Shown here: piece by piece, positions 9,001 through 36,854 of the stretch | Numbering within the stretch: position 1 is the first letter of the stretch | Layout of the letters: each line of letters begins with the position of its first letter | Assembly: GCA_045536365.1 (NCBI GenBank) | Contig: JAZSNL010000016.1 | Coordinates: 46,003 to 110,002 of the forward strand | DNA: 64,000 nucleotides | Source: Bacilli bacterium | Lineage (GTDB): Bacteria > Bacillota_I > Bacilli_A > ML615J-28 > CAG-313 | Direction: 5' to 3' | The notes under the pieces: model-generated | What the model was told of the DNA's origin: nothing | The model's database searches: none | Seen by the model: the letters and a program-made list of their open reading frames with translations, nothing else | Position numbers and translations under genes: made by a program

Positions 9001-12000
9001 AATATCTAAAATATCAACGATACCTTGGAATTGATCAGGAATCATATTCTTTTCTACTACTAGTTTTTCATATAAATCAGGTAATAATAATTCTACTAAT
9101 TTAGAATAAGTTAAATAATTTGTACCTTCTGCTTCATATTGACCAACAATAACTTGTAAAGCATTTACTAAAATTCTGCTGTTTACTTGGTTAGTTAAAT
9201 ATTCTAAGTCAATATTGAATTGGTTTTCATTAAAGAACTTGTAATCATTTAAGATAGGTCTTAATGTTTCGATTGCTTCTAAGATTAATAATCTTTCTTC
9301 AGCAAAATTAATGCCGTCGAAGTAACCTTTTTCAACATCCATAACTTTAAGAACTTTTAATACGATACGTAATACTTGACCTTCATGACCTTCAAATAAA
9401 ACGTTACCTAATAAAACATCAACAATATTTAAGATTCTATCAACTTCATTTAATTTTAAAGTTTCAAGTGGAGCTTTATCGAATGCTACATCAAATACAC
9501 CAATGTACTTAGCATCTTTAACTACAGATAAGATTTCTTGTAAAGCTACTAAGATTTCTTGAGAAGTAACTTCTTCAAGAACGCCTGCTAATGCGCCTTC
9601 ATCTTCGATTGATTTTTCAATTAAAGGTAATACTTTAGTTTGAATAACATCTGGTAAGATTGCAAGAACAATATCAGATTCAATTAATTCATCAATTGCG
9701 TTAATAGCAATATCATAGAATGCATCGTTATTTAATAACTTGTTAACTTCAAATTTGAAATTATTAATATCAACGCCTTCTAATTTAACTAATTCTTTAT
9801 ATTGATCTAAAATTGCTTGTAAAACTTTAATTTCATTTTCCCATTCAACTTCTGAGAAATCTGGAGTTGCAGAAACAATATCAAATTTAACTAATGCTGC
9901 TGTTAATAGACCTTCTTTAGCATTATCATCACCAAGAATATTTAATGTTAATACAGTTTCAATCGCAGCTTTAAGAGTATCAATTGCTTTGTCACTTGTT
10001 AAATCCATTGAAGAAATTTGAAGTGATAAAACATTTAATTCATTTAAGTCTTTAGCTAATTCTAAAATATCTTCAATATCTTCTGTCCATTGTTCATTAG
10101 ATAAATTAGTTAGTTTAATATATCCATTGAATTCTGGTAAGCCATTAGTTTTAAATGTTTGATTTAATACACCATCTAAAACAGGAGCAACAACAACAGG
10201 AATTAAAGAAGAATCAAAAATAGTTGTTAAAGTATCTTTAGCAGTAACAAATTTATCATTATCTTCTAAGATATCAGTAACTAATTCCATACCACCTTTG
10301 AAATCATCTAAACTATCAAAGCCTAATAATTTAAACATATCATAAGCTTCAACTAAATTTAGTAAATCTTCTTTCCAAGCAATAGCATCAGTATTAATTT
10401 CAAAACTTAAGTTACCTGTTAATTTCTTAACAGCTTCTAAGTTAACAGCTACACATGTGCCAATGTTTAATACTAATTCAAAACTTTCCGCTTCAAATAA
10501 TTTTTCAACAACTTCTTTTAATACTTCAGTGTTAAGATCGAATAAATCAATCATTTGTTCTGCTTCAGGATCAAATAATTTTGATGCAGCTTTTAATACT
10601 TCAGTATATGCATCCATTTCTTGTTCCCAATCAACATCCATTAAAGCATTAAAGTTATCTGTTTGACCAGCAGCTTCTAACATTGTATGTAATGATTCAT
10701 TACCTGTTGCATAATTAAATGCAATTGGGATAAGTAATTGATCAAACAAATCTAAGTTAGCAACTTTAACTAGCATTTGAGCAACAGTTTCAAGTTTTTC
10801 TTCATTTCTTAATACTTCTCTGAAGAATTCATTTCCATTAAATCCGTTAAGAGTTTCAATACCTAAGTCTTGGAATGTATCATAGATACCAACTAATTTA
10901 ACTAAATCATTTTTCCAATTGATTCCAGTTAAATCTGGGTTTTTATCCATTGTTCCAATTAAATTTTCAACGGCTTCAATTCTTAATGCAGTATTAACAA
11001 GAACAGGTAATAAGTTATTGATTAATTCAGTATCACCTAAATGTTCAACAACATTAACTAATACATCTGGATTCATTGTTAAGTAATTAAATTCACTTGA
11101 GAAGATATCTAACTTATAAACTTCTTTAACTGCATCAAGGATAAGTTCAATATCTTGATCCCAGTTAATATAACGAAGTTCTAAGAAATCACCTTGTTGA
11201 TTTGCTTTTGTAAGTAAATCTTTTAAGCCAAGTTTTAACATTTCTTCATCTTCATAAAGGAATTCAACTGCAACAGGCATTAATTCAGGTAATAATTGAG
11301 AGTATTTTAATTCATCTAAAGCATTATTAACTTCTGCTTGAGACCATTTAAATAAATCTTCTTTTGCAAATTTACCTTCTAATGCGTTAACTGCATAAAC
11401 GAATGTGATTAATTCTTCACGAACCGGAATTCTTTGAGTTTCAGTTTCAATTACTAATAACGAATCAAAAGTAATTGTACTAAATGAATCACCAAAGAAA
11501 TATGCTGAACCTTCAACTACTTTACCAATACCACTTTCATAGTATGAGTCAACGAAGCCAAATAATAAATCAGCAACTGATTCACCTTCTTCAGATACGT
11601 TTGCTTTATCGCCATCAATCATTTCAGCGATCGCATCTCTTGTCTCAGGAGATGCTTCAGCAAGAACTGAGCAAATTCCAGCGATAGGTGCAAATAAAAT
11701 AATAATTACTGCTAAACCTTTTAACACACCGATAACTGCGCCCCATACATTAGAGCGATATTTCCATGGTTTTGGTGCATCATTAGCGGCAACAGAAACT
11801 ACTACGTCATCCATTCCTAAATCGCTTTCTGATACTACTACAGTTTCTTCAGCTGTTGAATCTTTTTGTTCTTCTGATTCTTCAGCTACTTCTTCTGTAG
11901 CATTTGCAGCTTTCTTTTTCTTAACAGCTCTAACAATTAACCATACAATATGAGTAATTAGGCGAATAATAGGAGTTACTAAGAATGTAACGACTGTGAT

Positions 12001-12381
12001 GGCCATTAATCCTACTCCTCTTACTAAGCCAGAAACCACATTGTAGAATAGGTCATAAGTAGCTTTGCCTTCAATTAATAAACTTTCACCATTAGGAATC
12101 ATTTCTTGTCCTAAAAGAACAACAACATCCCAAATAGTTTTACAGTTTGAGGCATCGCCTTGAACCATACCCTTAAGAAGTTCTACAGCGGCTCCTTTAG
12201 AGTTTAGTAAAGTAGCTGCATCACCGAATATTAGCCATGCAAGAATTAGCATTACTAATATTACAGCTGTCCACGTAAGTTCTCTTCTAGCTTTTGCGAA
12301 GAAGCCCCATACAGCGAACAAGATTACCATTAATAAGCATCCCAAACCTACTAATAGTAAAGCTGAGCTAATAAAATCCAT
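1..12381 (-). CDS. Giant membrane-anchored repeat protein, 5' portion only (start codon at 12379..12381; frame stays open to position 1, so at least 4,127 codons lie in the window and the stop is beyond the left edge). CvpA-like N-terminal membrane domain followed by a long acidic helical repeat region.
   Basis: ATG at 12379-12381 preceded by AAGAGGTG. The hand-translated N-terminus MDFISSALLLVGLGCLLMVILFAVWGFFAKARRELTW has a GF..RE..TW pattern like the first CvpA TM hairpin. The ORF track reports no minus-strand ORF in this frame between 1 and 12381, which can only happen if there is no in-frame stop. Hand translation at 11131-11172 (YINWDQDIELILDA), 10903-10950 (MDKNPDLTGINWKNDL) and 1-60 (EQELVEKVFSRVSMLNGITV) gives clean coding sequence. 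The small plus-strand ORFs in this region are antisense shadows. Confidence 0.85.
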   Translation of the reverse strand, partial: MDFISSALLLVGLGCLLMVILFAVWGFFAKARRELTWTAVILVMLILAWLIFGDAATLLNSKGAAVELLKGMVQGDASNCKTIWDVVVLLGQEMIPNGESLLIEGKATYDLFYNVVSGLVRGVGLMAITVVTFLVTPIIRLITHIVWLIVRAVKKKKAANATEEVAEESEEQKDSTAEETVVVSESDLGMDDVVVSVAANDAPKPWKYRSNVWGAVIGVLKGLAVIIILFAPIAGICSVLAEASPETRDAIAEMIDGDKANVSEEGESVADLLFGFVDSYYESGIGKVVEGSAYFFGDSFSTITFDSLLVIETETQRIPVREELITFVYAVNALEGKFAKEDLFKWSQAEVNNALDELKYSQLLPELMPVAVEFLYEDEEMLKLGLKDLLTKANQQGDFLELRYINWDQDIELILDAVKEVYKLDIFSSEFNYLTMNPDVLVNVVEHLGDTELINNLLPVLVNTALRIEAVENLIGTMDKNPDLTGINWKNDLVKLVGIYDTFQDLGIETLNGFNGNEFFREVLRNEEKLETVAQMLVKVANLDLFDQLLIPIAFNYATGNESLHTMLEAAGQTDNFNALMDVDWEQEMDAYTEVLKAASKLFDPEAEQMIDLFDLNTEVLKEVVEKLFEAESFELVLNIGTCVAVNLEAVKKLTGNLSFEINTDAIAWKEDLLNLVEAYDMFKLLGFDSLDDFKGGMELVTDILEDNDKFVTAKDTLTTIFDSSLIPVVVAPVLDGVLNQTFKTNGLPEFNGYIKLTNLSNEQWTEDIEDILELAKDLNELNVLSLQISSMDLTSDKAIDTLKAAIETVLTLNILGDDNAKEGLLTAALVKFDIVSATPDFSEVEWENEIKVLQAILDQYKELVKLEGVDINNFKFEVNKLLNNDAFYDIAINAIDELIESDIVLAILPDVIQTKVLPLIEKSIEDEGALAGVLEEVTSQEILVALQEILSVVKDAKYIGVFDVAFDKAPLETLKLNEVDRILNIVDVLLGNVLFEGHEGQVLRIVLKVLKVMDVEKGYFDGINFAEERLLILEAIETLRPILNDYKFFNENQFNIDLEYLTNQVNSRILVNALQVIVGQYEAEGTNYLTYSKLVELLLPDLYEKLVVEKNMIPDQFQGIVDILDISNMSGADLLSDIRTLVYVADQAIELNAQEFMSNGALQLDNAIIDNIIDALKDVTMFDGKGAEVIVWVYDNFLKETLAKQNIDVEITLDDLAGIDFKAEGDKLKVVLHGISDLLDANGLISVSDFNRFIKEKAYLEADFANVENAREIIAVLSNLTQLDTLEVILELAFPVLLNKFENNFDLTFWKEAELTGEQLAEDVRSLLSIVQLVTDETEILTYLTNDWTGDLNFGDEKVAALQQIVAKVFELNLLKGYESNLISSILTSVLAKQDKIKVEDFALETIEDWSKESETIQGLFPLLADFLEENNILTVEDVRLFIDKKLYLDGALIKNENIAIAADLLAVLSGSKLVGNAVVAILPLIPDPIVTTTNEKGTFEISSKAFRELAAEDFQADLLTLSQIIDLVLPLDLVEIYENQVNTELVLNAESLNIVATAIERLYDLNLVSKCIDELYVEALNYVGGIAKLDFTITLDDIKAVDFEQEFALLASIVRESEDLVKALNARYLKDVINFVLEDTYKEYSSWTDELVAGIARVLRPATQLQTIGVLWPVAADMIRPYIDKTGLPLAFLRYYLEVEYTAESLAEDLNTIVDIALEAVELGAIEYIFTKDIQEISLAPAANILGLVQQLHLVADIEPELVEFGVNYALSLINFDNEFVVTLDEAEAINYVEEMAMLQNVVLQLQKVLDAAKLSSLSDVMTFIETGNYTDLAFYIAYKDVAYNALDAVAMLADSQILASLAPEAVVFLKDIADNANMNVDFLAYTGEELLEDVRAITSIAKDAVALGALEFIKNKELNNIDTDLLATIVDKVLALNIINGNEAELTAFGLNKLAEKVKLNVTVEADDFAFDWAQEKESIVDIVKQLGAFLTANEANSYPGAVEFFKGDEYKDADFWTENDKANVNKVAEIVESVLELQLTESLLPYALALGFAKLDAMGYPAVFMEEYFEYEYNREKLLEDAHTLVEILINAVDLGALEYIFTKDIADLDLDYAANIIGNLYELNIVYDNAQDLFAYAGNILVDKLELGYQFGYDEKDFENVSIENEFAQLYAIVSELDTIVEDFGLTQLSSLIAFFTNKDFLDLNIYNEECVDNLIDILTAVSNMEALHEFYELAVYAGTGMSKGLDVKFLRELSQEELVQDVETVLVIVRQLRTCGLYEYINTNDIEHFDFAGINEIIAKVDEINALNKFAGEWANVVLELVASKLPYEFNAAALEGINWSQENAQLQVIVTELGQFLSENGIDGLATIFGFINSKEYAKTKFWTRNEFANVKHAFEIVDHVLDLQLANPALGWGLEYAIELASSKGLDISFLSALADNGSSAKPYDGEYNAAVLKADLDVIENIFDELVAFGLKEILENVVVDDFDFNYVNNAIELLQEIQLLTLVETDWIALAINEVAKAAKLDLTVSAAELEHINFTSENALFQEVITAASEFLFEANLNGYDEIASFIVNKDYANIQFYTVESLIEALDVVEALVKLELVQLGLNPLLEKGLELASEKGFNLTFFKGQFTNEELASDVVKVLNAVEVLLVDTNALHYAQVPAEFDLQFAELDAVVEALEYLADTHVLAEDNFGKVVEALLEGIEVTGLFDLSDVTMDEEVAAISGLINEVQGFARNWNLETVNDIKKVNYKDVSVYFTHQEEQLRHIINVLEYAKNDKLLSEILFPLLDKYMPANLYALAGVNEIYGKYAVMGEDITRIQNALEVLISLDLEAVFENQIEIPWFEIHAVKTILNEIFGMRYFNGVGRGAALVEALGFAELVDGNALDFAGDAAKLGDIYHSATHIIAQDEFPYHTFEDFSTAKLNPALFTKDAVIETLKDILRAYMDTTIYEQTGFLVLVVLLPVAEKALPEYYELLIADLSQEQLVEDFDALFNAAIAVRDSGVLNIQSADLDVLEAKLLEALELVMNTNMFFGKFEALGELVLRDFVNGFTLGQFNFEGSNFTAAELDRSLKALRDVIIPQLFDVLEALDVQTLQELSSKVNLDAVLELLADEADYDLVQELVANLVNLDVLRNNAYDLYNLVVAPLLDGKASKAFDLSFYADQESLLADFDTLVEVLAELDSLGAPAIISDYLNGTENYVIDYTRSEIANVISLVVNTQYFAQYQTEIANRLAKPILDIDYSNIDLVNEANNYFIPAYEKLAVVANELDLDTIAKLRAFSMSTFNWKRLVSDYVLGSQTVEGLQELSGSQLLAEALPIVLEKLSNSSIPGARFLAPNGLSTEALAEDYDSLLVAAQATLDFMYNEGQHVRDGKNISIENVEKAILALETVWNLHLAQGKHAEVVEAACGKLGVSISAYELRSIDWANELDAVSGMLEAALTIANTYGLHEARETYYYLKGLKDLGKVELVKEAYRLFMRDNYETTVEFFEALAASELVDVVALPIYRELTKSLSGNALILLDLSTYTNAELAEDLDSVAAIARNLFDSNAYQAYCTGTELTAAAESYIAEIIIDFFGLNIIDDKAQDAVEFISSYLGLDLTSLDLSNVNWDADGYAYAAHADAFVTLFNEVFLDVKGNLGTLGILGNEAVVEATIRLYDAFVTTTLAEEAGYWLVSEFVGPLAAKVDADSPLVNADRAKAVEFLADLSNIAKAFVNMGFFGNGANAVINLDAANGLTLLSTVLKNNTNLPAKLYEYLDKTINRVYAVGEFELNYEGISSKQTVKSLYALAKAAYGFAKTYVPQLSRTNLTVINTDQFQADFTSLVSQVADQAVLGQLLLPVARGAARMLATALPGFELFETLTTEEFNEKLINEYLPEVYELIEYAAELGLLEGKLSYKNTDPLMGIVDFLVTSELSKDNLTSVVTYLVRKLNVSTPELEAKLANINWNHEAALGNAFLSQLKYALNVSGVKLDDLSTLKNNEFLGYAQKALAELEDSYLLETLGRTLAIRLYNKVLGGRFQILKDLLSDANYTDADFVADYKVGVSMISDIIALDYFGAGSVYGKLDNKNANDEYAIASLVEAAFGLAIIEGHEQELVEKVFSRVSMLNGITV

Positions 12382-12614: not shown

Positions 12615-15600
12615 TTAAGCTAATCCTAACATCTCTAAAATAGATTTTGCAAGCGCAGATTCTTCAACTCTTTCTTTCAATTCAGTATTAGTTTCCAAGT
12701 TAAAATTATCTGGATCTGCATGATAAATTTCAAATACATCTTCTAAAATTACTGCTTCTTCCTCGAAATTTGCTTCACTTAAATCTATTTCACTACCTAA
12801 ATATTCAGAAGCAACTTCATTAATAACATCCTTTGCAAGTTCATTATTTTCAAGATTTTTCAATTCATCAACCAACTTTTGAACTGTTTCTTCTTCTGTC
12901 ATAGTTTCAGTTGTTAAATTAGTCATTGAATTAGCTAAATCAATTAAACCACCAATATTATCAGCTTGTTCATTTAACACATTTGGATCAGTAAAATCAT
13001 ATTTATATGTTCCGTCATCATTCTTAGGAAGTTTATCATATCCATTAACACCAAGAGTTTCAACTAAAACCGTTCCTAATACTTTACTTGCAATAACGCT
13101 TCCGCTAGCTTCTTTCATTATCGCGCTAACATCAGATCCTTTAATAGAAGATAAATCTTCTGCACCTAATAAGCTTTCACTTGCAATATCATAAACATTT
13201 AATGTTCTATTAATTTCGTTAGTCCAACCATTTGTTTTAATCAATTCTTTTTCAGCAGAATTAAATGTTAAATCAAATGATAAACTATCATCAATATTAG
13301 AAACTAATGTTCCGATTAAATCAAATATAATAGGCTCAAATATTTGAGATTCATTAAAGGCATCTAATACTTTACCTATTTGATTAATTGTTTCTTGATC
13401 TCTTTGACCTGTTTCAGGATCAACTTCTAATATTGTTGTAAAATCTAATGAGCTTAAATCTCCACCACATAAATTAGAAATTTCGATGATTACATTTGCT
13501 AATTTACCAGGTTCTGTTTCCCAATCAACATTTTCAATTTCAAGTGTAATTCCATATTCTTCTAACATTGAATTCAATTCAAACGTATCAATCAAGAAGT
13601 TCATTAATTCAGTTTCATTACCTTTAATTAATCCAATATCAAATATTCTTTCTAATAGGTTTTTAATAGCTTCAGGATTATTTAAATCAATATTTCCCTC
13701 TTCACCAAACAGAATATTTAAATCCTTTAATCCATAAATGATTTCTACAATATTAATCATTTCTGCTTTAAATTCTTCAGAAGTTGTATTTTTTAAAGCT
13801 TCAAAATTTAATATTCCTTGAAGCCCTTCAGGGATTACACTATCTTCTTTTCCTGCTTGTGAGTTATATAAACTTTCTAATAATAATACGCCAGCTTTTC
13901 TAAATAAATCTGATTCAGCTACTTTACTAACGATATCTAGAGTAAGATCTTTATTATCTATAAAGTATTCAAATGAAATATTTTCCGCATTAATAACAGG
14001 AATTACTGAAAGAATAATATCAGCGATTTTTTCCGGTTCAGTTTCCCAGTTAATTTGTAAGTCATCCATTACATTTTCAGGGACATATTCTTTAATTGCT
14101 TCAACGCTTAATAGTGTTTTGATTAGCCCTTCTTCATGTCCATCAATAACAGTTAAATTGAAAATATTTATTATACTTTCCTTAATTAAAACTTCTTCAT
14201 CTTCACTAATAGGATCTAGTTTTTGGCTAGTTCCGTTTATTAATTCTTTACCTACTCCATATATTTTTTGAACTGTATCAACTAACAACACACTATCGTC
14301 TTTTAAAATTTTAAGAAGGTTTTCTTCTGTTATTAATTCTTCTAAATATTGAGTATCAATTTTATCAATTTTAGCTACTAATTCAGACAGTTTTTCCACT
14401 GCAAAAGGTACACCTATCTTATTAATAATTTGTAATTTTAATAATGAATTAACAATATTACCAAAAGAATCTTTTAGTTTAGGGTCTTCAACAATACTTA
14501 ACGGATCATTGATATCTATTTTTAAATCAACTGCTGCTACTGCAACTTCTTGAATAACATCTATTAACGTATCCATTTCTTTATTAATATCTATTTCCTT
14601 AATGCCAGATAAATTAATTTCAACCCCTTCAAAGTCTCCATTATCAACCGCATAACATAAATATTCAAATCCAACAGGTAAAATTATTTTTACTGATTGA
14701 ATATTTTTTAATACATCACATATTTTAGTAACATCTTCTTCTGATACACCCGCAAAATCAAACATCACTTTTTCTTCAGTAACTTCTATTTTAGAAGTTA
14801 TAACTGGTATAATTTGTCTTAAATTAGCATATTCTTCTACAAAATCTAATTTACCGTGTTCTGTTTTAACTGTTAATAGGCTACCAATATATTTAGCATC
14901 TAAAGTTAAATCATTCTTTTTATCTCTTGTGATATTAAATATTTTTCTTGTAATACAAGAATCAAATTGATTATTAAATTCAGTAAATAATTCTTCTGTT
15001 GTTGAATTTGTTAAATCTTTATTAGGGGATTTTAAAAGCATTTCTAATAAGCTATTTAATCCACTCGTATCAGAACTAACAGTCACTTCTTCTGAATTTT
15101 CTGTGTTTTCAATAATTCCATATGTTTGTTCAAAATCATCAATTGCAAGTTTAGTAATTGATAATGTACCGAAAATTGGAATTAAAAACACAATAAAGAA
15201 AACTGCAAATTCTAAGAATCCCATCCCCATTCCTAATAAACGAGAAAATAATGTTTTTCTTTTCTTTACTTTCTTCCCTATTTTTTCATCAACTACTTTG
15301 TCATCAAAAATTAACATATTGAAAAAAGCGAGTATTAATCTTAGTATTGGTCCTATAATAGCAAATATTAAAATTGTACCTACTGTATAAATTACAAATT
15401 TTAAAATTCCTACAGCTACGCTTTCCGCAAAGACTAATAATTCACTATTTGGTACATCTACACTGCCGTTTGTATAAATGTTTTCTTGAATCAATGTCAC
15501 CGCATAGTCTTTAACTGAAGTGAATCCTTCAATAATATTGTATTTACTTATGTCTGTTTCTAATATTTTTACCGCGATACTGCCTAAAAAGATTGCGAGT

Positions 15601-15740
15601 AAAACAAAAGGAACAACTATTGATATTACTCTTCTTGTTGATTTATTAAACCCAATAATAAACCCTCTTAATAAACAAAAAACAAGAGCTATCAATACTA
15701 ATAAATCTAATCCTAAATTAATATATTGTAAAACTGACAT
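12615..15740 (-). CDS. CvpA-like membrane domain fused to an acidic helical repeat region. It is a shorter paralog of the giant protein (about 1,041 aa from the corrected start).
   Basis: ORF track 12615..15791. The internal Met at 15738-15740 has a GGAGG RBS 7 nt upstream and leaves a 34-nt gap to the murA stop, so it is the preferred start. The N-terminus LDLLVLIALVFCLLRGFIIGF... matches the CvpA LRGF motif, with four predicted TM helices. The C-terminal ~800 aa is rich in E/D/L/I/N with recurring motifs INWETEPEK and VDWETEPGK. Confidence 0.8.
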   Translation of the reverse strand: MSVLQYINLGLDLLVLIALVFCLLRGFIIGFNKSTRRVISIVVPFVLLAIFLGSIAVKILETDISKYNIIEGFTSVKDYAVTLIQENIYTNGSVDVPNSELLVFAESVAVGILKFVIYTVGTILIFAIIGPILRLILAFFNMLIFDDKVVDEKIGKKVKKRKTLFSRLLGMGMGFLEFAVFFIVFLIPIFGTLSITKLAIDDFEQTYGIIENTENSEEVTVSSDTSGLNSLLEMLLKSPNKDLTNSTTEELFTEFNNQFDSCITRKIFNITRDKKNDLTLDAKYIGSLLTVKTEHGKLDFVEEYANLRQIIPVITSKIEVTEEKVMFDFAGVSEEDVTKICDVLKNIQSVKIILPVGFEYLCYAVDNGDFEGVEINLSGIKEIDINKEMDTLIDVIQEVAVAAVDLKIDINDPLSIVEDPKLKDSFGNIVNSLLKLQIINKIGVPFAVEKLSELVAKIDKIDTQYLEELITEENLLKILKDDSVLLVDTVQKIYGVGKELINGTSQKLDPISEDEEVLIKESIINIFNLTVIDGHEEGLIKTLLSVEAIKEYVPENVMDDLQINWETEPEKIADIILSVIPVINAENISFEYFIDNKDLTLDIVSKVAESDLFRKAGVLLLESLYNSQAGKEDSVIPEGLQGILNFEALKNTTSEEFKAEMINIVEIIYGLKDLNILFGEEGNIDLNNPEAIKNLLERIFDIGLIKGNETELMNFLIDTFELNSMLEEYGITLEIENVDWETEPGKLANVIIEISNLCGGDLSSLDFTTILEVDPETGQRDQETINQIGKVLDAFNESQIFEPIIFDLIGTLVSNIDDSLSFDLTFNSAEKELIKTNGWTNEINRTLNVYDIASESLLGAEDLSSIKGSDVSAIMKEASGSVIASKVLGTVLVETLGVNGYDKLPKNDDGTYKYDFTDPNVLNEQADNIGGLIDLANSMTNLTTETMTEEETVQKLVDELKNLENNELAKDVINEVASEYLGSEIDLSEANFEEEAVILEDVFEIYHADPDNFNLETNTELKERVEESALAKSILEMLGLA

Positions 15741-15774
15741 GTTTCGCCTCCTAATTAGATTTATTATAGCACAC

Positions 15775-17025
15775 TTAATTTTCCTTTTCAATCATTATTT
15801 TCAATTTTTTTAATTTTTCTTCAATATCTTCATATCCCCTTTTGATAACTTCAAAATTGTTTATAGTTAGTTCTTTAGTTAATGCTGATAATAAAATTAA
15901 AGAAAAACCTCCTCTTAAATCTTTTGCGGTTGCAATGTTTATATTTAAAATACTTTCATCTATAACAATATCATTATTATGAATATAAATGTTTGCACCT
16001 GAAGAAACCAATTCTTCAATTTGTGAAGTTCTTTGTGGATATATTGTATCCGATATTTTTGATTTACCTTGTGCCTTTAACAATAATATTAATATTATTT
16101 GTTGTAAATCTGTTGGAAATTCGGGATATTCACCGGTTTTTATTGTTATAGGTTTTAATACATTAGGTGATTCTATAATAAGTTTTCTTTGTTCATATGT
16201 GATTCTAACATTCATTTTTCTTAATACTTCAATTACTTTTTCTAATTTACATGGATTAACATTTTCTAATATGACTTTACTTTTAGGTATTATCGATGAC
16301 AATATCATATAACTTCCAGCTTCAATTCTGTCAAATGGAATATCATATGTAGTTCCAAATAATTTTTTAACGCCATATATAACTAATTTATTTTCTTTAA
16401 ATAGAATATTAGAACCCATTTGATTTAACATTTCAATTACTGATAATACATCCGGTTCATGTGAATAGTTCTCTATTTCAACTATTTTATTTGAACAAAC
16501 TGTATTAAGTAAAATATTTATAGTTGTCCCTACACTAGGTTTAGGTAGTTTAATAGATATTCTTTTATTTTTTATTTTTCTTTTTTTAATTAATATATAT
16601 CCTTTTTTTAGTATTACTTTATATCCTAATTGTTTAAATGCTTCTAAATGATAATCAATAGGTCTAACTGAAAAATTACAACCTCCTGGTTGTTTTATTT
16701 TTATTTTTCCTTTTCTTGATAGAATTGATCCTATAAAATAATAGGATGCTCGAATGGAAGCTACTTTATCTGATAGGATATTTGTCGATATTTTTTTGAA
16801 ATTCAATCTTAATCTTTTATTTAGTTTGTTATAATCTAATTTCCCTTTTGCTTCTATCGCAATTTCCATCATATTTATTACATCCGTAATAAAAGGAACA
16901 TTATTTAATATCACATCTTCATTAGTTAAAATTGAAGCTGCTATGAGTGGTAAAGTTGTATTTTTAGAACCACTTATATTAATCGTTCCTTTTAAATAAT
17001 TTGGCATTTTTATTTTCATTTTCAT
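15775..17025 (-). CDS. murA: UDP-N-acetylglucosamine 1-carboxyvinyltransferase
   Basis: N-terminal ISGSKNTTLPLIAASIL and the active-site Cys context KQPGGCNFSVRPID are typical of MurA, at 416 aa. Confidence 0.85.
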   Translation of the reverse strand: MKMKIKMPNYLKGTINISGSKNTTLPLIAASILTNEDVILNNVPFITDVINMMEIAIEAKGKLDYNKLNKRLRLNFKKISTNILSDKVASIRASYYFIGSILSRKGKIKIKQPGGCNFSVRPIDYHLEAFKQLGYKVILKKGYILIKKRKIKNKRISIKLPKPSVGTTINILLNTVCSNKIVEIENYSHEPDVLSVIEMLNQMGSNILFKENKLVIYGVKKLFGTTYDIPFDRIEAGSYMILSSIIPKSKVILENVNPCKLEKVIEVLRKMNVRITYEQRKLIIESPNVLKPITIKTGEYPEFPTDLQQIILILLLKAQGKSKISDTIYPQRTSQIEELVSSGANIYIHNNDIVIDESILNINIATAKDLRGGFSLILLSALTKELTINNFEVIKRGYEDIEEKLKKLKIMIEKEN

Positions 17026-17077: not shown

Positions 17078-17106
17078 TTGAAATTTTATCTGTTTTGTGT
17101 TATGAT
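17078..17106 (+). promoter_or_regulatory. Candidate promoter TTGAAA, 17 nt spacer, TGTTATGAT (extended -10) for the fumarase-like gene
   Basis: ttgaaa at 17078-17083, a 17-nt spacer, tatgat at 17101-17106 preceded by TG. The predicted TSS falls at or after 17112, which argues that the real start codon is the downstream ATG at 17136. Confidence 0.4.
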
Positions 17107-17135
17107 ATGTAATGTCGGAAAGTAAGGCGATGAAT

Positions 17136-18257
17136 ATGAAGTACAGAATCGAGAAAGATATTCTCGGAGAGAAGAAAATGCCAAGTGAAGTATATTATGG
17201 CATATATACTCTACGAGGCAAAGAAAATTTTCAAATCACTAAACGCGGTATATGTAGACAATTAATCAAATCAGTAACTATTGTTAAAAAAGCAGCAGCT
17301 AAAGCAAATTATGAAGCCGGTGCATTAGAAGAAAAAGTTGCTGATTCAATCATTTTAGCTTGTGATGAAATATTAAATGGAAGACTTCACGGACAATTTG
17401 TAACTGATTTAATTCAAGGTGGTGCTGGTGAAAGCATTAATATGAATGCAAATGAAGTTATTGCGAATAGAGCTAATGAAATGTTAGGTGGAGAAAAAGG
17501 AAAATATGAATTTGTTGATCCTATTAAACACGTTAACTACGGACAAGCTACTAATGATGTTATTCCTACTGCAGGTAAAATAGCAGTAATTAAACAATTA
17601 AAAAAATTAATTGTTGAATTAAAAAAATTAGAAAATTCTTTTAAAACTAAATCCAAAGAATTTGGGTTTACAAAAACAAGCGAAGAATTCGCTGCTATCG
17701 CAACATTATTATCAAGAGACATTAAACGTATCGAAGGATCTATTAATGATTTATCAGAAATAAACTTAGGCATTAATGCTTTAAAACAAAATACTCGTGG
17801 AGCTGATAAATATTTTAAAAAGATTATTATATATATTAATAAATACTCTGGAGAAACTTTAAGACATAGTAAAAACTTACTTGATTCTACTAGAAGTCTA
17901 GATAGTTTCTTATGGGCAAGCAGTTGTTTGAAAACTCTAGCTGTTGGATTATCAAAAGCCGCTAATGATATTAATATTTTATCTGATCCAGAACATCGTG
18001 AAATTGTCTTACCTATTGTTCAGATCGATAGCAGTAATAAAGAATATAATCCTGTTATAATTGAAATGGTTAACCAAGTAGCATTTTATGTTATGGGATT
18101 AGACGTTACTGTTACAAAAGCTATTGAAGCAGGACAATTATCAAATAATATCTTTTTACCAATTATCTTAACTTCTTTATTTGAATCTATTTCTGTTTTG
18201 AGAAGAGCTTCTAGAACTTTAAGAGAATTAGTAATCGATGACACTAAATTAGCATAA
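17136..18257 (+). CDS. Aspartase/fumarase class II family protein, divergent: degenerate SS loop and no C-terminal domain
   Basis: MKYRIEKDILGE matches the FumC/AspA N-terminus (MEYRIERDTMGE). GGAGESINMNANEVIANRA corresponds to the conserved TGSGTQSNMNVNEVIANRA and NYGQATNDVIP to SQSSNDTFP. The signature GSSIMPGKVNPTQCE is replaced by DSSNKEYNPVIIE. The protein is about 373 aa versus about 460 for FumC. Confidence 0.7.
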   Translation: MKYRIEKDILGEKKMPSEVYYGIYTLRGKENFQITKRGICRQLIKSVTIVKKAAAKANYEAGALEEKVADSIILACDEILNGRLHGQFVTDLIQGGAGESINMNANEVIANRANEMLGGEKGKYEFVDPIKHVNYGQATNDVIPTAGKIAVIKQLKKLIVELKKLENSFKTKSKEFGFTKTSEEFAAIATLLSRDIKRIEGSINDLSEINLGINALKQNTRGADKYFKKIIIYINKYSGETLRHSKNLLDSTRSLDSFLWASSCLKTLAVGLSKAANDINILSDPEHREIVLPIVQIDSSNKEYNPVIIEMVNQVAFYVMGLDVTVTKAIEAGQLSNNIFLPIILTSLFESISVLRRASRTLRELVIDDTKLA

Positions 18258-18259
18258 TA

Positions 18260-18283
18260 AAAGAGCATCAATTGATGCTCTTT
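18260..18283. terminator. Bidirectional intrinsic terminator between the convergent fumarase-like and GH5 genes
   Basis: Perfect 10-bp stem aaagagcatc / gatgctcttt with loop aatt, followed by a T-run on the plus strand and an A-run before it. Confidence 0.5.
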
Positions 18284-19732
18284 TTATTTTAATCCAGCTT
18301 TTGATCTTGTCCATTGCTTATACCAAATTCCCCATTCTTTTAAATGTTCATCTGAGAAATCTGTTAATGTATCATCACTATGTTTAATAATTGAAGCAGA
18401 ACCTGCACTATTAGAAATGTTCCACGCAACATAACTAATATTTCTTTGGTCTAATATTTTATACCAGTTTTGAATTGATGAATAGTTCATCGCTCCATCA
18501 CCTGATGATTCCATACCGCCGTGTTCACTTATAAATACAGGGAATCCTTTATCATAAGCATTTGAAACTTGATATGTATTTTTATGTCCTGCCGCATAGA
18601 AATGATATGTATACATAATATTTTCATATCCTACTAAAGGATCTGCCATTACCGCATTTAAATTAGCTGTCCAGTTTGGATTTCCAACTAGAATAATTCC
18701 ATCTGTGTTTTCTCTAATTTTAGGGATTACTAATTCTGCATATGTTTTACATTGTTTCCATGTAGTTGAACCGTTTGGTTCATTCATAATTTCATATAAA
18801 ACATTATCATAATCTTTAAATTCTTTACTTATTCTACTAAAGAAGTCCATTGCTTCATCTTTATAGTACAAAGGGTTTTTATCATTTGCATCTTCAGCAC
18901 CTACCATGTGCCAGTCAATGATAACGTATAATCCCGCTTCTGTTGCGTATTTAACACCTTGAACTACTAAATTATATAGTCTTTCTTTATTAGCTTCACT
19001 TGTACAATATCCATCTTCTGAAGTATACATTGCAAGTCGAATAACATTTATACCAAATGTATTTTTCAAACTTGAGATTGTTCCTTTGTTAACATATCTA
19101 CTAAACCATTGTAATCCATGTGTACTTAAGCCAATAAGTTGGAATTTTTCACCATTTTTATCAACTAAGTCTGGACCACTTACACTTATTTTACCATGAG
19201 TAAAATAGTCATTTGATAATTTAATAGGAGTTGGAGCTTCATCGTATTTTGCAATGATAGTCATATCTGAATCAAGAACGATAAATTCTTTTGAGTATGA
19301 TGAACCATTTATTCTCCATGAAGAAAAAGCGTATTCTTCAATTGGCAAAATGTAATCTTCTAATCTTAGTTCTGTCCATGGTAAAACTTCGTATTGTTCT
19401 TCAAACATGTCATTATAGTTAATTGTTAGTATAACTGTTCTTTGTTTTTCAAATTCAGCTACTAGCGTTAAATCTTTTGTGACACTAATTTGTGATGTAA
19501 ATAAATTACCTTGTTCATCTTTCCACCCTACAAAGTTGTGTAATTCTTTTTCAGCTTTTGGTAATGAAGATGCTTCTAATATTTGATCTTTTTCTAACTC
19601 AATTGTTTGAAATAATTCTCCATCTACTAATAAATTTACTTTATAGATTTTAGGTCCTTTATCTTTACAACCTATCATAAATAAAGAAATAATTAAAACA
19701 GAAATTATTGTTATAATTGTCTTACGCTTCAT
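18284..19732 (-). CDS. Lipoprotein glycoside hydrolase family 5 endoglucanase (cellulase) with N-terminal Listeria-Bacteroides-type (Flg_new) repeats, copy 1
   Basis: Signal peptide plus lipobox LFMIGC. GH5 catalytic motifs are present: LIGLSTHGLQWF, IMNEPNG (acid/base Glu) and FISEHGG (nucleophile Glu). The N-terminal region carries FVGWKDEQGNLF-type repeats. Confidence 0.8.
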   Translation of the reverse strand: MKRKTIITIISVLIISLFMIGCKDKGPKIYKVNLLVDGELFQTIELEKDQILEASSLPKAEKELHNFVGWKDEQGNLFTSQISVTKDLTLVAEFEKQRTVILTINYNDMFEEQYEVLPWTELRLEDYILPIEEYAFSSWRINGSSYSKEFIVLDSDMTIIAKYDEAPTPIKLSNDYFTHGKISVSGPDLVDKNGEKFQLIGLSTHGLQWFSRYVNKGTISSLKNTFGINVIRLAMYTSEDGYCTSEANKERLYNLVVQGVKYATEAGLYVIIDWHMVGAEDANDKNPLYYKDEAMDFFSRISKEFKDYDNVLYEIMNEPNGSTTWKQCKTYAELVIPKIRENTDGIILVGNPNWTANLNAVMADPLVGYENIMYTYHFYAAGHKNTYQVSNAYDKGFPVFISEHGGMESSGDGAMNYSSIQNWYKILDQRNISYVAWNISNSAGSASIIKHSDDTLTDFSDEHLKEWGIWYKQWTRSKAGLK

Positions 19733-19910
19733 TTGTCTTACCCTTTCTTAATAAATATGTTCCTAGTAAAAATATACCAGCACTTGAATAACTTGTTATT
19801 AATAAAATATATTTCATAAAATCTTTTTTAATTAAAATCATACATACTATTAATGATATAAAAAGTAATATTGAAAAAACTGTTAATAGATAACCTAATA
19901 TTTTATTCAT
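19722..19910 (-). CDS. Small two-TM membrane protein (62 aa), hypothetical
   Basis: Hydrophobic ORF that overlaps the neighbouring genes by a few nt on each side, consistent with translational coupling. Confidence 0.35.
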   Translation of the reverse strand: MNKILGYLLTVFSILLFISLIVCMILIKKDFMKYILLITSYSSAGIFLLGTYLLRKGKTNEA

Positions 19911-21934
19911 TATTCCACCTTAGTTATATTATTGCCTACTTCTACTAAAGCAGACATATTTCGTTCAATTTTAATTTCTTGGTTCGTTGACTCTGTATTG
20001 TAATATGCTAATTGTCCATCTTGCATTTTCACATAGTAATCATTACCATAAACATTTTCCATATCTATTATCGCATTATTTGTAATCATTGAAATAGTTT
20101 CAATTTTTGTATCTTTTAAAATAACAGAACCTTTTTCTTGACCAGTGACTGTTAGCGATTTAATACTTGATTGTAAGCCATATGGATTTTCATCATTAGG
20201 TAAATCATTTTCTACCGCAAATTTAGTTGATAATTTATTATAAACTGTAATCACTGGGTATAATTGTATTTTATTAAATTCTTTTTCAAATTCATTTAAT
20301 TCAACATCTTCTAATGGATTTCCTTTTTTATCAGGAATATTTTCTGAAAGATTGTATAAATATATATTTCCAGAGTTTCCTTCTAATTTAATATTATTAC
20401 TTTTTACATATTCACATATAAAATATGAACCGCTGACAAATGCATCTAATTTGTCTTTTATTATTGTTTTAGTAATAGTAAAAGATGAAGTAGCTTGAAC
20501 AGATACAGTACATAAACTCATATCACTTTCATACATTGTTGTTATTGTGCTTGTTGAGTAATAATTAAAGCTATAACAATTCATTCTGTTTATTGTCATT
20601 TTACCGGAATTGCTGGATAAGTTTACATTAGGAATGTTTTCATTTTTATCATTAAATAAAGGATTAGTAAATTCAATATTCTTAATATCAATATTAGCAG
20701 AACTATTAATTATATTTAATTTTTCACCTTTTGTATTATGAATATTAATATTTCCTTCTAATACATTAATTGAAATATTTTTTATATTATTTGATGTATT
20801 TTTATAAGCTTCTTCTTCTGTTGATGTAATAAGTGTACCTTTATTTGTATTAATTGTTAAAGATTCAATATTGGAATTATATATTTGATATCCACCAGTT
20901 GTAGTTGTTAGTGAAACATCGCCAAGGTTTGATGATAAAATATTAACATTTCCAATTGAAATTGCTAAATCTAAATCAATATAATTATATTTTGATGGTA
21001 ATTTAATAACAACTGTTTGTGTTGGTTCTTTTAATAAATCTAAGAAGTCATATGTTTTATTATCATCAAATTCAATAGTTAAAACATTGTTTTCTGTTTT
21101 TAAATTAAAGTTATGTTCTAATTCATGATAATAAGTGATTAGTATATTATCAATTGTATCATCTGTTGTAATAGTAAAATTTGCGGTAGAGCCTTTATAT
21201 ACTATTTTTTCTAAATTATTTTCAGTTACTTCATACTCTTCTGTAATACTATTGATATTATTATTACTACGATATAAGTATCCTTTTGTTGTAATATTTA
21301 ATACTGCTGAACCGATTAAAATAAAGAAAACGACTATTGCGATTTTCACTAATACTTTTTCTTTTTTAAAGAGTTTATTGATTGTTCCACTTATTGAGAA
21401 ATTTGCAATTTTTTCATTAATTTCTTTCTTTTTTAATTGTTGATATGATCCTGTTATAAAATACATAATTATTAAATAACATAAATCAACAAAATATATA
21501 AATATTACTAGTTCAACTATTAGTAATAATATTCCCGATATTATTAATGATATTTGATCTAATAGTTCAAATTTGTTTGTTTGTGTTAATAATTTAATTA
21601 AATTAACTGACATTGATCCAAAGATAAATGTTATATAAGCAAATATTGCAAGTATTATTAATGATACAACTATTGAAGTAATAAAGTTAACTATTGCTTG
21701 TCGTTTCATTGCTTTTTTTCTTAATTCAATATAAGCAACACCTTTTGTTTTATAAATATCTTCAGCTATTGCTTTAGGACTAGGAAATGAAGCGATAACT
21801 TTTTCTTCTTTTTCTCCATAATCAATAGCAGTATTTATTTTTTGTTGATAAAACTTAATTATTTCATTTTGATCTTTTGGTTTTAAATATTTAAGTTCTT
21901 CAGCTAATTGTGTTAAAAATTCTCTTTGATCCAT
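19910..21934 (-). CDS. DUF1700-like N-terminal domain, transmembrane segments and a C-terminal DUF4097-like (putative adhesin/LiaG-like beta-rich) repeat domain
   Basis: The N-terminus MDQREFLTQLAEELKYLKPKDQNEIIKFYQQKI...SPKAIAEDIYK matches the DUF1700 pattern. Several TM helices occupy residues ~90-210. The C-terminal half is Asn/Thr/Ser-rich with repeated GNVNI/ITTTTGG-type beta-strand repeats. Confidence 0.55.
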   Translation of the reverse strand: MDQREFLTQLAEELKYLKPKDQNEIIKFYQQKINTAIDYGEKEEKVIASFPSPKAIAEDIYKTKGVAYIELRKKAMKRQAIVNFITSIVVSLIILAIFAYITFIFGSMSVNLIKLLTQTNKFELLDQISLIISGILLLIVELVIFIYFVDLCYLIIMYFITGSYQQLKKKEINEKIANFSISGTINKLFKKEKVLVKIAIVVFFILIGSAVLNITTKGYLYRSNNNINSITEEYEVTENNLEKIVYKGSTANFTITTDDTIDNILITYYHELEHNFNLKTENNVLTIEFDDNKTYDFLDLLKEPTQTVVIKLPSKYNYIDLDLAISIGNVNILSSNLGDVSLTTTTGGYQIYNSNIESLTINTNKGTLITSTEEEAYKNTSNNIKNISINVLEGNINIHNTKGEKLNIINSSANIDIKNIEFTNPLFNDKNENIPNVNLSSNSGKMTINRMNCYSFNYYSTSTITTMYESDMSLCTVSVQATSSFTITKTIIKDKLDAFVSGSYFICEYVKSNNIKLEGNSGNIYLYNLSENIPDKKGNPLEDVELNEFEKEFNKIQLYPVITVYNKLSTKFAVENDLPNDENPYGLQSSIKSLTVTGQEKGSVILKDTKIETISMITNNAIIDMENVYGNDYYVKMQDGQLAYYNTESTNQEIKIERNMSALVEVGNNITKVE

Positions 21935-22040: not shown

Positions 22041-23486
22041 TTATTTCATTTGTGCTTTGTTTCTTGTCCATTGCTTATACCATTTTCCCCACTCAGTTAA
22101 ATGTTCATCTGAGAAGTCAGTTAAAGTATCATTTCCGTTCTTAATAATTGATGATGAGCATAAGCTATTAGATAAATTCCACGCAACATAACTAATATTT
22201 CTTTGGTCTAATATTTTATACCAGTTTTGAATTGATGAATAATCGATTGCACCATCACCTGATGATTCCATACCACCGTGTTCACTTATAAATACAGGGA
22301 AACCTTTAGAGTAAGCATTAGTTACTTGATATGTATTTTTATGATCTGCCGCATAGAAATGATATGTATACATAATATTTTCATATCCTGTTATTGGATC
22401 AGCCATTACCGCATTCAAATTTGAAGTCCAGTTTGGATTACCTAATAGAATAATACCATCTGTATTTTCTCTAATTTTAGGGATTACTAATTCTGCATAT
22501 GTTTTACATTGTTTCCATGTAGTTGAACCATTTGGTTCATTCATAATTTCATATAAAACATTATCATAATCTTTAAATTCTTTACTTATTCTACTAAAGA
22601 AATCCATTGCTTCATCTTTATAATATAATGGGTTTTTATCATTTACATCTTCAGCACCTACCATGTGCCAGTCAATAATAACATAAAGGCCCACTTCTGT
22701 TGCGTATTTAACACCTTGAACTACTAAGTTATATAGTCTTTCGCGATTATTAGGATTATCACAATAGCCATCCTCTGAGGTTGTTAAAGCTAGTCTAATA
22801 ACATTAATTCCATAAGTGTTTTTAATTGCCGCAAAAGTTCCTTTGTTAACATATCTACTAAACCATTGTAATCCATGTGTACTTAAACCAATAAGCTGGA
22901 ATTTTTCACCATTTTTATCGACTAAGTCTGGACCACTTACACTTATTTTACCATGAGTAAAATAGTCATTATCTAAATTAAGTGGTGTTGGTGAATCCAT
23001 ATATATAGCGTCTATTCTCATATCAGAATCTAATATGATAAATTCTTTTGAATATGAAGAACCATTGATTTTCCATGATGCAAAAGCATATTCTTCTATT
23101 GGTAAAATATATTGATCTAAATATATTTCTGTCCATGTTAAAACTTCATATTGTTCTTCGAACATATCGTTATAATTAATAGTTAAGATGGCGGTAGGTA
23201 GTTTTTGGAATTCAGCTGTTATTGTTTTATCACAAGTAATTACTATGTCAGTTGTTATTAAATTACCTAGTTCATCTTTCCATCCAATAAAACGATATAA
23301 ATCTTTATTTGCTGTAGGAAAAGAATTATATTGTAATATTTCATTTGAAATTATTTCTTTTGTTTCTACTGTTTTATTATCAATAATAAATTTTACTTCG
23401 TATGTTTCTTCTTTATTCTTACAGCCTAATAAAAATAGTGAACAAATAATAATAGAAAGAATTGATATCACAAATCTCTTTTTCAT
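22041..23486 (-). CDS. Lipoprotein GH5 endoglucanase with Flg_new-type repeats, copy 2 (paralog of 18284..19732)
   Basis: ORF track 22041..23528. The preferred start is the Met at 23484-23486 (MKKRFVISILSIIICSLFLLGC, signal peptide plus lipobox) with an AGGAGG RBS. The catalytic half is about 90% identical to copy 1 at nucleotide level, for example at 22660-22760 versus 18900-19000. Confidence 0.8.
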   Translation of the reverse strand: MKKRFVISILSIIICSLFLLGCKNKEETYEVKFIIDNKTVETKEIISNEILQYNSFPTANKDLYRFIGWKDELGNLITTDIVITCDKTITAEFQKLPTAILTINYNDMFEEQYEVLTWTEIYLDQYILPIEEYAFASWKINGSSYSKEFIILDSDMRIDAIYMDSPTPLNLDNDYFTHGKISVSGPDLVDKNGEKFQLIGLSTHGLQWFSRYVNKGTFAAIKNTYGINVIRLALTTSEDGYCDNPNNRERLYNLVVQGVKYATEVGLYVIIDWHMVGAEDVNDKNPLYYKDEAMDFFSRISKEFKDYDNVLYEIMNEPNGSTTWKQCKTYAELVIPKIRENTDGIILLGNPNWTSNLNAVMADPITGYENIMYTYHFYAADHKNTYQVTNAYSKGFPVFISEHGGMESSGDGAIDYSSIQNWYKILDQRNISYVAWNLSNSLCSSSIIKNGNDTLTDFSDEHLTEWGKWYKQWTRNKAQMK

Positions 23487-23511
23487 ACATTCCTCCTTTT
23501 TATAAAAAAAA

Positions 23512-23529
23512 TATGCTTTTAAAAGCATA
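23512..23529 (-). terminator. Hairpin after the tRNA pair
   Basis: Perfect palindrome tatgctttt / aaaagcata, followed on the minus strand by a T-run (complement of 23497-23511). Confidence 0.4.
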
Positions 23530-23542
23530 CAAATTTTAAAGA

Positions 23543-23618
23543 TGGTAGGGCTAAATGGATTCGAACCATTGAAATGACGGAGTCAAAGTCCGTTGCCTTA
23601 CCGCTTGGCTATAGCCCT
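23543..23618 (-). tRNA. tRNA-Gln (anticodon UUG), 76 nt with encoded CCA
   Basis: Reverse complement reads AGGGCUAUAGCCAAGCGGUAAGGCAACGGACUUUGACUCCGUCAUUUCAAUGGUUCGAAUCCAUUUAGCCCUACCA. It folds as a cloverleaf with anticodon loop CUUUGAC, T-loop TTCGAAT and a 7-bp acceptor stem, and is almost identical to B. subtilis tRNA-Gln. Confidence 0.9.
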
Positions 23619-23625
23619 ATAAAGA

Positions 23626-23710
23626 TGGTGGAAGGGGACGGATTCGAACCATCGAACTCGGAGAGAGCGGATTTACAGTCCGCCGCGTTTAGCCACTTCG
23701 CTACCCTTCC
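23626..23710 (-). tRNA. tRNA-Tyr (anticodon GUA), 85 nt with long variable arm and encoded CCA
   Basis: Reverse complement reads GGAAGGGUAGCGAAGUGGCUAAACGCGGCGGACUGUAAAUCCGCUCUCUCCGAGUUCGAUGGUUCGAAUCCGUCCCCUUCCACCA. The anticodon loop is CUGUAAA and it is near-identical to Bacillus tRNA-Tyr. Confidence 0.9.
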
Positions 23711-32837: not shown

Positions 32838-32861
32838 ATTTTTCTCCTTTTCTAAAATGAA

Positions 32862-32887
32862 AAAAAGCGTCATTATGACGCTTTTTT
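32862..32887 (-). terminator. Attenuator/terminator hairpin immediately upstream of the ABC transporter RBS
   Basis: aaaaaagcgtca...tgacgctttttt inverted repeat with T-runs. It sits between a ~190-nt leader and the RBS at 32843-32849. Confidence 0.55.
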
Positions 32888-36831: not shown

Positions 36832-36854
36832 AAAAGTGTAGAAACTACACTTTT
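36832..36854 (-). terminator. Terminator of the murF-ddl operon
   Basis: aaaagtgtag / ctacactttt stem with a 3-nt loop, followed by a T-run on the minus strand. It abuts the ddl stop codon. Confidence 0.55.

Follow-up and report, generated by a model that had tools for sequence, protein, structure and literature searches.

A truncated aspartase homolog of Bacilli that has lost three catalytic modules is a likely pseudoenzyme under purifying selection

The window analysed here is a stretch of 64,000 nucleotides (64 kb) from a Bacilli bacterium (assembly GCA_045536365.1, contig JAZSNL010000016.1, positions 46,003 to 110,002), and all positions given below count from its first letter. The gene at 17136-18257 encodes a 373-residue member of the aspartase/fumarase superfamily whose closest relatives in profile searches are aspartate ammonia-lyases (aspartases, AspA). 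Domain 3 and the loop carrying Thr187 and His188 are deleted, the flexible SS loop is degenerate, and the gene is under strong purifying selection. The reading that we favour, with some reserve, is that the protein is a pseudoenzyme whose retained helical scaffold (domains 1 and 2) serves a non-catalytic role, one probably already present in the AspA of this lineage.

Superfamily membership is given by a full-length match to Pfam Lyase_1 (PF00206), with E = 7.4e-43 and 147.6 bits against a cut-off of 27, covering model positions 1-312 of 312. Only generic aspA/fumC models of NCBIfam match the 373-residue protein, and no NCBIfam model reaches its cut-off. TIGR00839 (aspA equivalog) scores 348.3 bits against a cut-off of 681.2 and NF008909 (aspA) 386.1 bits against 510, and the class II fumarase models score below the aspartate ammonia-lyase models. 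The closest solved structure is AspB of Bacillus sp. YM55-1 (1j3u/3r6y), with E about 1e-87. By these searches and the alignment below, the protein falls outside aspartate ammonia-lyase in curated score, signature loop, catalytic residues, and domain 3.

Residues were aligned with AspB and 28 canonical AspA sequences, and AspB numbering is used throughout. The match to the aspA models ends at position 386-392 of 468-474, so that approximately 85-95 residues (domain 3, FumaraseC_C, PF10415) are absent. PF10415 was not matched by the protein in a Pfam scan, and a search with canonical domain 3 as the query did not find this domain in any of the six frames of the window; the best match (E = 0.029) lies inside an ABC-transporter ATPase gene. 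The gene end reads TAA TAA and is followed directly by a terminator-like hairpin, which is abutted by a convergent GH5 cellulase gene ending at 18284. The hairpin and the convergent gene end therefore leave no room for domain 3.

The deletion of the Thr187/His188 loop and the remnants of the other active-site elements are listed in Table 1. The SS loop, read as QIDSS--NKEYNP in the alignment, does not carry the signature GSSxMPxKxNP, and Gly317, Met321, Pro322, Gly323, and Lys324 are replaced. Several of its positions vary among orthologs that are 80-91% identical: Ser318 is S, C, or A, Lys324 is E, S, K, or T, and Asn326 is N or H. Thr101 is 100% conserved in the 28 canonical AspA sequences and is E or D in every member of the clade that contains the window protein (the window clade). 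In the QLELN motif, Glu-Leu has become Ser-Asn. Over the aspartase residue set as a whole, two positions are replaced (T101E/D and S140A), two are deleted (T187 and H188), four are variable (T141, S318, K324, and N326), and two are kept (N142 and S319).

Thr101, Ser140, and Thr141 of AspB belong to the substrate-binding and catalytic positions. The window clade deviates at approximately 23 of the 131 columns of AspB 1-385 that are at least 90% conserved in the 28 canonical sequences. Most of these columns lie in or beside active-site elements (T101, S140, 183-197, 317-323, and 357-358), and for two more clusters, at 233-238 and 295-298, we know of no role. Ser318 is the catalytic residue and Ser319 a second conserved serine in catalysis; Thr187, Met321, Lys324, and Asn326 form the alpha-carboxylate pocket; and His188 and Asn142 contribute to the carboxylate-binding pocket and contact the amine group (PMC11744663). 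Closure of the SS loop is controlled by the C-terminal domain, and the active sites of the superfamily are assembled from three subunits (PMC11744663). Because domain 3, the Thr187/His188 loop, and the SS loop are removed and Thr101 and Ser140 are replaced, the 373-residue protein would not be expected to carry out the known aspartase/fumarase beta-elimination.

An earlier note on this DNA had reported that GSSxMPxKxNP is replaced by DSSNKEYNP and that the C-terminal domain 3 is absent, and the alignment and the early end of the model match bear out both. It had also described the N-terminal and central conserved regions as clearly present. The strings that it quoted (MKYRIEKDILGE, GGAGESINMNANEVIANRA, NYGQATNDVIP, and DSSNKEYNP) are found in the translation, but the central region is without the 14-residue Thr187/His188 stretch. 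Two findings would have overturned its view, namely an alignment that restores GSSxMPxKxNP and a domain 3 encoded downstream or in another frame, and neither turned up. Of the checks that it proposed, comparison with family models gives a full-length Lyase_1 match and aspA scores below their cut-offs, and structure prediction gives a domain 1/2 fold in a monomer model. The Thr187/His188 loop deletion, T101E, S140A, and the recurrence of truncation in other lineages go beyond that note.

The AlphaFold2 (AF2) monomer model, based on a 23-sequence alignment, has a predicted local distance difference test score (pLDDT) of 76.9 and a predicted template modelling (TM) score (pTM) of 0.79. The long domain-2 helices are modelled confidently, and a tight turn at residues 177-179 joins helix 139-176 to helix 180-206 where the loop is deleted. 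The best PDB match is the chymotrypsin-treated, domain-3-less AspB 3r6y (TM score 0.79/0.76, Foldseek E = 1.5e-21). Domains 1 and 2 are likewise modelled with confidence for P0188, a strongly degenerate truncated protein of another lineage (pLDDT 83.9, pTM 0.85). In this superfamily, domain 1 and the five-helix domain 2 make up the helical-bundle tetramer core, and the truncated protein may well retain the tetramer. The N-terminal 38 or so residues are highly conserved, yet have pLDDT below 50 in both monomer models, which would fit a segment that needs a neighbouring subunit or a partner to be placed.

The window gene is an in-place descendant (positional ortholog) of the aspA of its lineage and not a paralog, because canonical aspA holds the same position beside murA in related genomes. 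The divergent murA-aspA pair is found with canonical AspA of 466-476 residues in loci L008-L012 and L014, and with truncated forms in L001-L007, L086, L088, and L097. The closest full-length proteins, 63-66% identical, are canonical aspartases of 470-475 residues from metagenome-assembled genomes (MAGs) of Acholeplasmatales and Bacilli. No close ortholog was found in the GTDB representative genomes, where the best matches are the canonical AspA of an Anaeroplasma bactoclasticum MAG and its relatives (61-62% identity). In the Anaeroplasma-like MAGs, aspA and murA are transcribed divergently, and beyond murA come a gene for approximately 1000-1200 residues and then a giant gene. A six-frame search identified no second Lyase_1 gene (canonical aspA or fumC) within the window. 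MurA was considered as a specific functional partner and rejected, since the pairing and the upstream 1000-residue and giant genes also flank canonical aspA, and the synteny is thus inherited.

Same-length orthologs were identified in a search of 5.8 billion proteins: P0001 (374 residues, 91% identity), P0002 (377 residues, 82%), P0003 (375 residues, 80%), and two fragments. Orthologs P0001-P0005 carry all of the lesions of the window protein. The contigs that encode proteins with the same lesions come from at least seven samples or assemblies with accessions of their own and show conserved synteny, and the truncation is therefore not a sequencing artefact. A frameshifted or split gene was also rejected: six-frame searches of the window and the orthologous loci with canonical AspA and domain 3 returned one Lyase_1 locus and no domain 3. 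A 15-codon extension in L007 is spurious, as it runs through the stop codon and the terminator.

The ratio of nonsynonymous to synonymous divergence (dN/dS) is 0.04-0.16 at a dS of 0.85-1.0, which is near saturation for the approximate Nei-Gojobori method used (NG86). The corresponding ratio is 0.18-0.26 for the neighbouring murA and 0.14 for a GH5 gene. At the 29% GC of the truncated gene, a stop arises from 5.9% of single-base changes, so that a neutral divergence of 0.85 per site would give approximately 56 stop-creating changes, and the probability of finding no stop is about 3e-25. The gene is the most conserved of the six shared with L001, at 90.9% identity versus 69-83% for its neighbours, and in L005 the truncated lyase is 80.4% identical versus 60-63% for three full-length shared neighbours. 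Sites variable among close orthologs make up 47% of the former active-site segments, which were picked after the alignment had been inspected, versus 22% elsewhere (Fisher p = 4e-5). Compared with its canonical relatives, the window clade lies 9-12 identity points more distant from each outgroup, a pattern that indicates rapid change on the stem and tight constraint thereafter.

A pseudoenzyme may be defined operationally as a protein with its catalytic residues lost and under purifying selection, and by sequence criteria this describes the window protein. The earlier note had called the gene an intact open reading frame (ORF) with its own promoter, not an obvious pseudogene, and possibly a non-canonical or non-catalytic member of the superfamily. 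The dN/dS values, the persistence of the ORF, and the ortholog conservation uphold the intact frame and speak against a pseudogene. The catalytic and binding positions that are deleted, replaced, or variable, together with the strong selection, support the last, and the promoter-like site in Table 1 has elements conserved in the orthologs.

Truncation of AspA recurs in related lineages. Locus L086, from a rabbit-gut Bacilli MAG found as a GTDB match, encodes a truncated homolog of 367 residues beside murA that is far more degenerate. Searches with this homolog and with P0219 gave approximately 95 clusters of Lyase_1-only proteins of 353-394 residues, and there is a further group of 28 members of 376-389 residues. 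The truncated forms of both groups end at the domain 2/3 boundary and are without an intact GRTHLQ loop and without the SS loop. Their neighbourhood reads SHMT, murA, the malic-enzyme gene in some cases, the lyase, peptidase M55, RluA, DUF2207, LemA, L31, and TK. Examples of 358-394 residues from MAGs of uncultured Bacilli, Acholeplasmataceae, and Tenericutes (P0131, P0169, P0170, P0188, and P0385) share the Lyase_1-only make-up, the domain 2/3 end, the loop losses, and the chromosomal neighbourhood with the window protein. They are only 43-59% identical to it and group in other clades, next to full-length relatives of their own; in many of them degeneration has gone much further (QDGYGYGMN for QGGAGTSMN, for example), and some are translationally coupled to a malic-enzyme gene. 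In a profile search of 1.84 billion representatives at 50% identity, fewer than 10 truncated representatives of approximately 360-392 residues appear before canonical AspA takes over, and by this search the phenomenon is lineage-restricted. Full-text searching of the literature gave nothing relevant on truncated or pseudoenzyme aspartases, and no dedicated NCBIfam family was found for these proteins, none of the models scoring them above its cut-off.

The truncated forms fall into three truncated-only clades of 94, 28, and 4 sequences in neighbour-joining trees, each adjoining full-length relatives. The window clade is apart from the large family in 199 of 200 bootstraps, while monophyly of all truncated forms is found in 3/200 and a grouping of the window clade with P0219 in 2/200. 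With a set of 190 sequences, at least three truncated-only clades are recovered in 95/100 replicates, the window clade stands alone in 92/100, and a single truncated-only clade is found in 1/100. A single origin of all truncated forms was rejected on these values (3/200 and 1/100). Short signatures are likewise shared between truncated and full-length forms: KQLKK by the window clade and Anaeroplasma-like canonical forms, RQTKK by the P0219 group and full-length P0216/P0217, and RL[TV]KK by the large truncated family and full-length P0210/P0220/P0225. As each clade stands apart beside its own full-length relatives, at least three independent truncations appear to have taken place in related gut bacteria.

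Full-length AspA relatives of 454-482 residues with altered motifs were also identified (P0210, P0220, P0225, P0226, P0229, P0232, P0206-P0208, P0224, and P0228). The alterations include SKTHL for GRTHL and GSTTNPGKDNPV or GSTIIPGKINPV for GSSIMPGKFNPV. The set, part of which is sister to the large truncated family, could represent intermediates or enzymes whose specificity has changed.

The proposed course of events has four steps. The ancestral canonical AspA of the lineage would already have had a second, non-catalytic role. Aspartase activity would then have become dispensable in reduced-genome gut Bacilli, and deletion bias would have stripped the parts that serve catalysis only (domain 3, the Thr187/His188 loop, and the SS loop). 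The remaining protein would fold, probably oligomerise, and act as a binding or scaffold protein. A second function that predates the truncation is suggested because the same three modules were repeatedly lost from the resident gene and the remainder was conserved. A bolder version, which we put forward tentatively and would not yet bet on, is that the AspA of gut Bacilli related to Anaeroplasma and Acholeplasmatales has an important second, non-catalytic function, for example as an oligomeric partner of another protein such as malic enzyme. Stripping of the three catalytic modules on at least three independent occasions would then have left a "pure moonlighter" under stronger constraint than MurA and other essential neighbours.

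Three motifs are near-invariant in the canonical and truncated forms of the group: ITK[RH]GxxRQxIK, CDEILNGRLHGQFxTD, and KKLxxExKKL (AspB 35-46, 78-93, and 157-167). They differ in the AspA of Bacillales, Clostridia, and Lachnospiraceae. The motifs could be a lineage-specific interaction surface or could be merely structural. They partly overlap the structural conservation seen across the superfamily, and the moonlighting surface remains a lead. Among the structural matches is PDB 9a75_B, an integrative crosslinking model of an EF-Ts/AspA complex, which hints that canonical AspA has protein partners.

A malic-enzyme gene of 386-392 residues lies directly upstream of the truncated lyase in L089 (6841-9092), L091 (4841-7116), and L093 (4811-7131). 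The two genes overlap by 1 bp in L089 and by 4 bp in L091 and are 11 bp apart in L093, an arrangement that suggests translational coupling. Malic enzyme also adjoins canonical aspA in several Lachnospiraceae and Paenibacillus loci (L018, L026, L029, L032, and L060), and no malic-enzyme gene was found in the 64-kb window. As a partner of the window protein it was set aside and is kept as a lead, the only one from gene context, being absent from the window and present beside canonical aspA elsewhere. In L086 (3227-4860), the truncated lyase gene and an inorganic-pyrophosphatase-like gene overlap, the stop of the former (4330) with the start of the latter.

Several points weigh against a non-catalytic scaffold with a pre-existing role. 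Motifs common to canonical and truncated forms may be structural and not a binding surface, and the window clade has no malic-enzyme neighbour. The loss of activity is read from sequence alone, the selection values come from the near-saturated dS given above, and a second canonical aspA may lie elsewhere in the genome, outside the 64-kb window. The first 37 residues of the monomer model have pLDDT below 50, and oligomerisation of the protein is no more than probable. The independent origins are drawn from neighbour-joining distance trees only. The window and P0219 clades have near-identical deletion boundaries, which common descent or recombination could explain; convergence on a discrete loop can explain them too, though it is not proved by them.

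The first alternative is a regulatory ("prozyme") subunit that forms a hetero-oligomer with an active partner and modulates it, the partner being a canonical AspA or FumC elsewhere in the genome or malic enzyme. With active sites built from three subunits (PMC11744663), mixed tetramers would alter activity. Coupling to malic enzyme in L089, L091, and L093 would suggest stoichiometric co-production, and conserved N-terminal residues that are poorly placed in monomers are what an interface element would show. However, the gene sits in the aspA locus itself and has replaced the canonical copy with no duplication, the window is without a second Lyase_1 gene or malic enzyme, and the pairing of malic enzyme with aspA is ancestral and may simply be inherited. 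We consider a prozyme unlikely.

A remodelled enzyme is slightly harder to uphold. The cleft would catalyse another reaction, or act on another substrate, in C4-dicarboxylate metabolism with non-canonical residues, for which Asn142/Asp143, the HVN motif, and most of GGAGxSINMNANEV remain available in the window clade. Other truncated lineages have the gene overlapping a malic-enzyme gene in the same orientation, a pairing also seen with canonical aspA in other Firmicutes, and the superfamily is reported to have given rise to decarboxylases and nitrosuccinate lyases. Against such an enzyme, the Ser318, Lys324, and Asn326 positions differ among orthologs that are 80-91% identical, Thr187 and His188 are deleted, and the former cleft retains no constellation of polar residues common to the three truncated clades. 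We also know of no characterised enzyme of the superfamily from which domain 3 and the SS loop are both missing.

That the gene is a decaying pseudogene, or a normal aspA altered by misassembly or a frameshift error, is very improbable: the loss of all signature motifs and a whole domain resembles a dying gene, and the genome is AT-rich (28% GC) in a group known for reductive evolution (PMC10868615), but an unbroken frame of constant length is found in independent assemblies and in lineages whose proteins have diverged by 20%, the dN/dS and stop-codon values and a conservation exceeding that of murA rule out a pseudogene, the promoter and ribosome-binding elements are conserved, and no frame encodes domain 3, the L007 extension being spurious.

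The pseudoenzyme reading can be set beside known systems. AspA and AspB (Bacillus sp. YM55-1, PDB 1J3U/3R6V) share homology over domains 1 and 2 and the same predicted helical fold with the window protein, which is 42-45% identical to AspB, and the canonical AspA of Anaeroplasma-like MAGs is 63-66% identical and has the same position beside murA. Unlike the window protein, AspA and AspB have domain 3, the GSSxMPxKxNP and Thr187/His188 loops, Thr101, and Ser140 all present. The structure 3R6Y is also without domain 3 and has nearly the same C-terminal boundary; it is a proteolytic product of an active enzyme and keeps all catalytic motifs, whereas in the window protein the truncation lies in the gene and those motifs are missing as well.

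As a conserved scaffold for tetrameric enzymes, the aspartase/fumarase superfamily is a textbook example, and delta-crystallin is its one classic non-catalytic member. Delta-1 crystallin is an inactive argininosuccinate-lyase paralog with a structural role in bird lenses. By analogy, the window protein would be another superfamily member with a non-catalytic role. Delta-1 crystallin is a duplicated paralog that keeps its three domains and most catalytic residues, whereas in the window protein the single locus copy has itself been converted and the catalytic parts physically deleted. If the reading is true, AspA has a hidden second function that the truncated proteins isolate from catalysis and make experimentally accessible, and the family is a natural case in which pseudoenzymes arose convergently, through the loss of a domain and of loops as genomes were reduced. 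Public names of the truncated forms include "lyase family protein", "hypothetical protein", and "aspartate ammonia-lyase". The last, carried by several of these proteins, would then be an annotation error that misleads metabolic reconstructions of uncultured gut Bacilli.

The features of the gene and its immediate surroundings are collected in Table 1. The ATG at 17136 is the likely start codon, giving the 373-residue product, because the aligned orthologs and canonical AspA all open with M[KR]YRIE, because this ATG is kept across the orthologous loci and the in-frame ATGs at 17112 and 17130 are not, and because the conserved promoter elements would set the transcription start after 17112. TTTG and TGTTAT[GT]AT elements of the candidate promoter are conserved in the upstream intergenic regions of the orthologous loci L001, L005, and L007. 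The putative ribosome-binding region GGAAAGTAAGG ends 8 nucleotides upstream of the ATG.

Table 1. Features of the truncated aspartase gene and its flanks, in window positions
Feature	Positions	Strand	Remarks
murA (UDP-GlcNAc 1-carboxyvinyltransferase), divergent neighbour	15775-17025	-	Pfam and NCBIfam matches; marks the aspA position
Promoter-like site (sigma-70-like)	17078-17106	+	TTGAAA, 17-nt spacer, TATGAT with TG extension; consensus scan, 10/12 matches plus extended -10
ORF	17112-18257	+	381 aa from first ATG
Putative ribosome-binding region	17117-17127	+	GGAAAGTAAGG; GGAAAG and AGG common to all four orthologous loci
Coding sequence of truncated aspartase homolog	17136-18257	+	373 aa; domains 1 and 2 only; TAA stop at 18255-18257
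C1 remnant QGGAGESIN	17415-17441	+	AspB Thr101 to Glu99 (codon 17430-17432)
C2 remnant HVNYGQATNDVIP	17529-17567	+	AspB Ser140 to Ala; Thr141 T/A among orthologs
Deletion junction FGFTKT	17661-17678	+	14-residue loop, AspB 183-196 (IKxGRTHLQEAVP, with Thr187/His188), missing
Degenerate SS loop QIDSSNKEYNP	18021-18053	+	Replaces QPGSSIMPGKFNP; two residues shorter
Terminator-like hairpin	18259-18284	+	11-pair stem and T run; directly 3' of the stop; shared with convergent GH5 gene

On the murA side, a gene at 12615-15791 (-) encodes a membrane protein of 1058 residues (p1058) without a Pfam match, and its start overlaps the murA stop by 17 nucleotides. A giant ORF of more than 4126 residues (1-12381, -) runs off the window start. 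The murA, p1058, and giant genes appear to form one transcription unit. All three recur together upstream of aspA or the truncated lyase in L001, L005, L008, L009, L011, L012, and L088, and the giant proteins are annotated at 4861-6723 residues in L001, L005, and L088.

On the other side, a HAAS/DUF4097 "toastrack" protein is encoded between two paralogous GH5 cellulase genes whose products have lipoprotein-like N-termini (18284-19732, 19910-21934, and 22041-23528, all on the minus strand); in L001 both cellulases are in tandem instead. Adjacent tRNA-Gln(TTG) and tRNA-Tyr(GTA) genes follow at 23543-23710 (-). A lysine riboswitch (RF00168, 95 bits) is located at 32898-33067 (-), upstream of ABC-transporter permease-type genes at 30928-32873.

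A D-Ala-D-Ala ligase (ddl) and a Mur ligase are encoded within 36853-39547 (-). MurA is seemingly intact, with the equivalents of Cys115, Arg120, and Asp305 present. Because these three genes are present, the 28% GC organism probably still makes peptidoglycan. Thin-walled, genome-reduced orders of Bacilli have been described (PMC10868615), and the ddl and Mur ligase genes of the window fit these.

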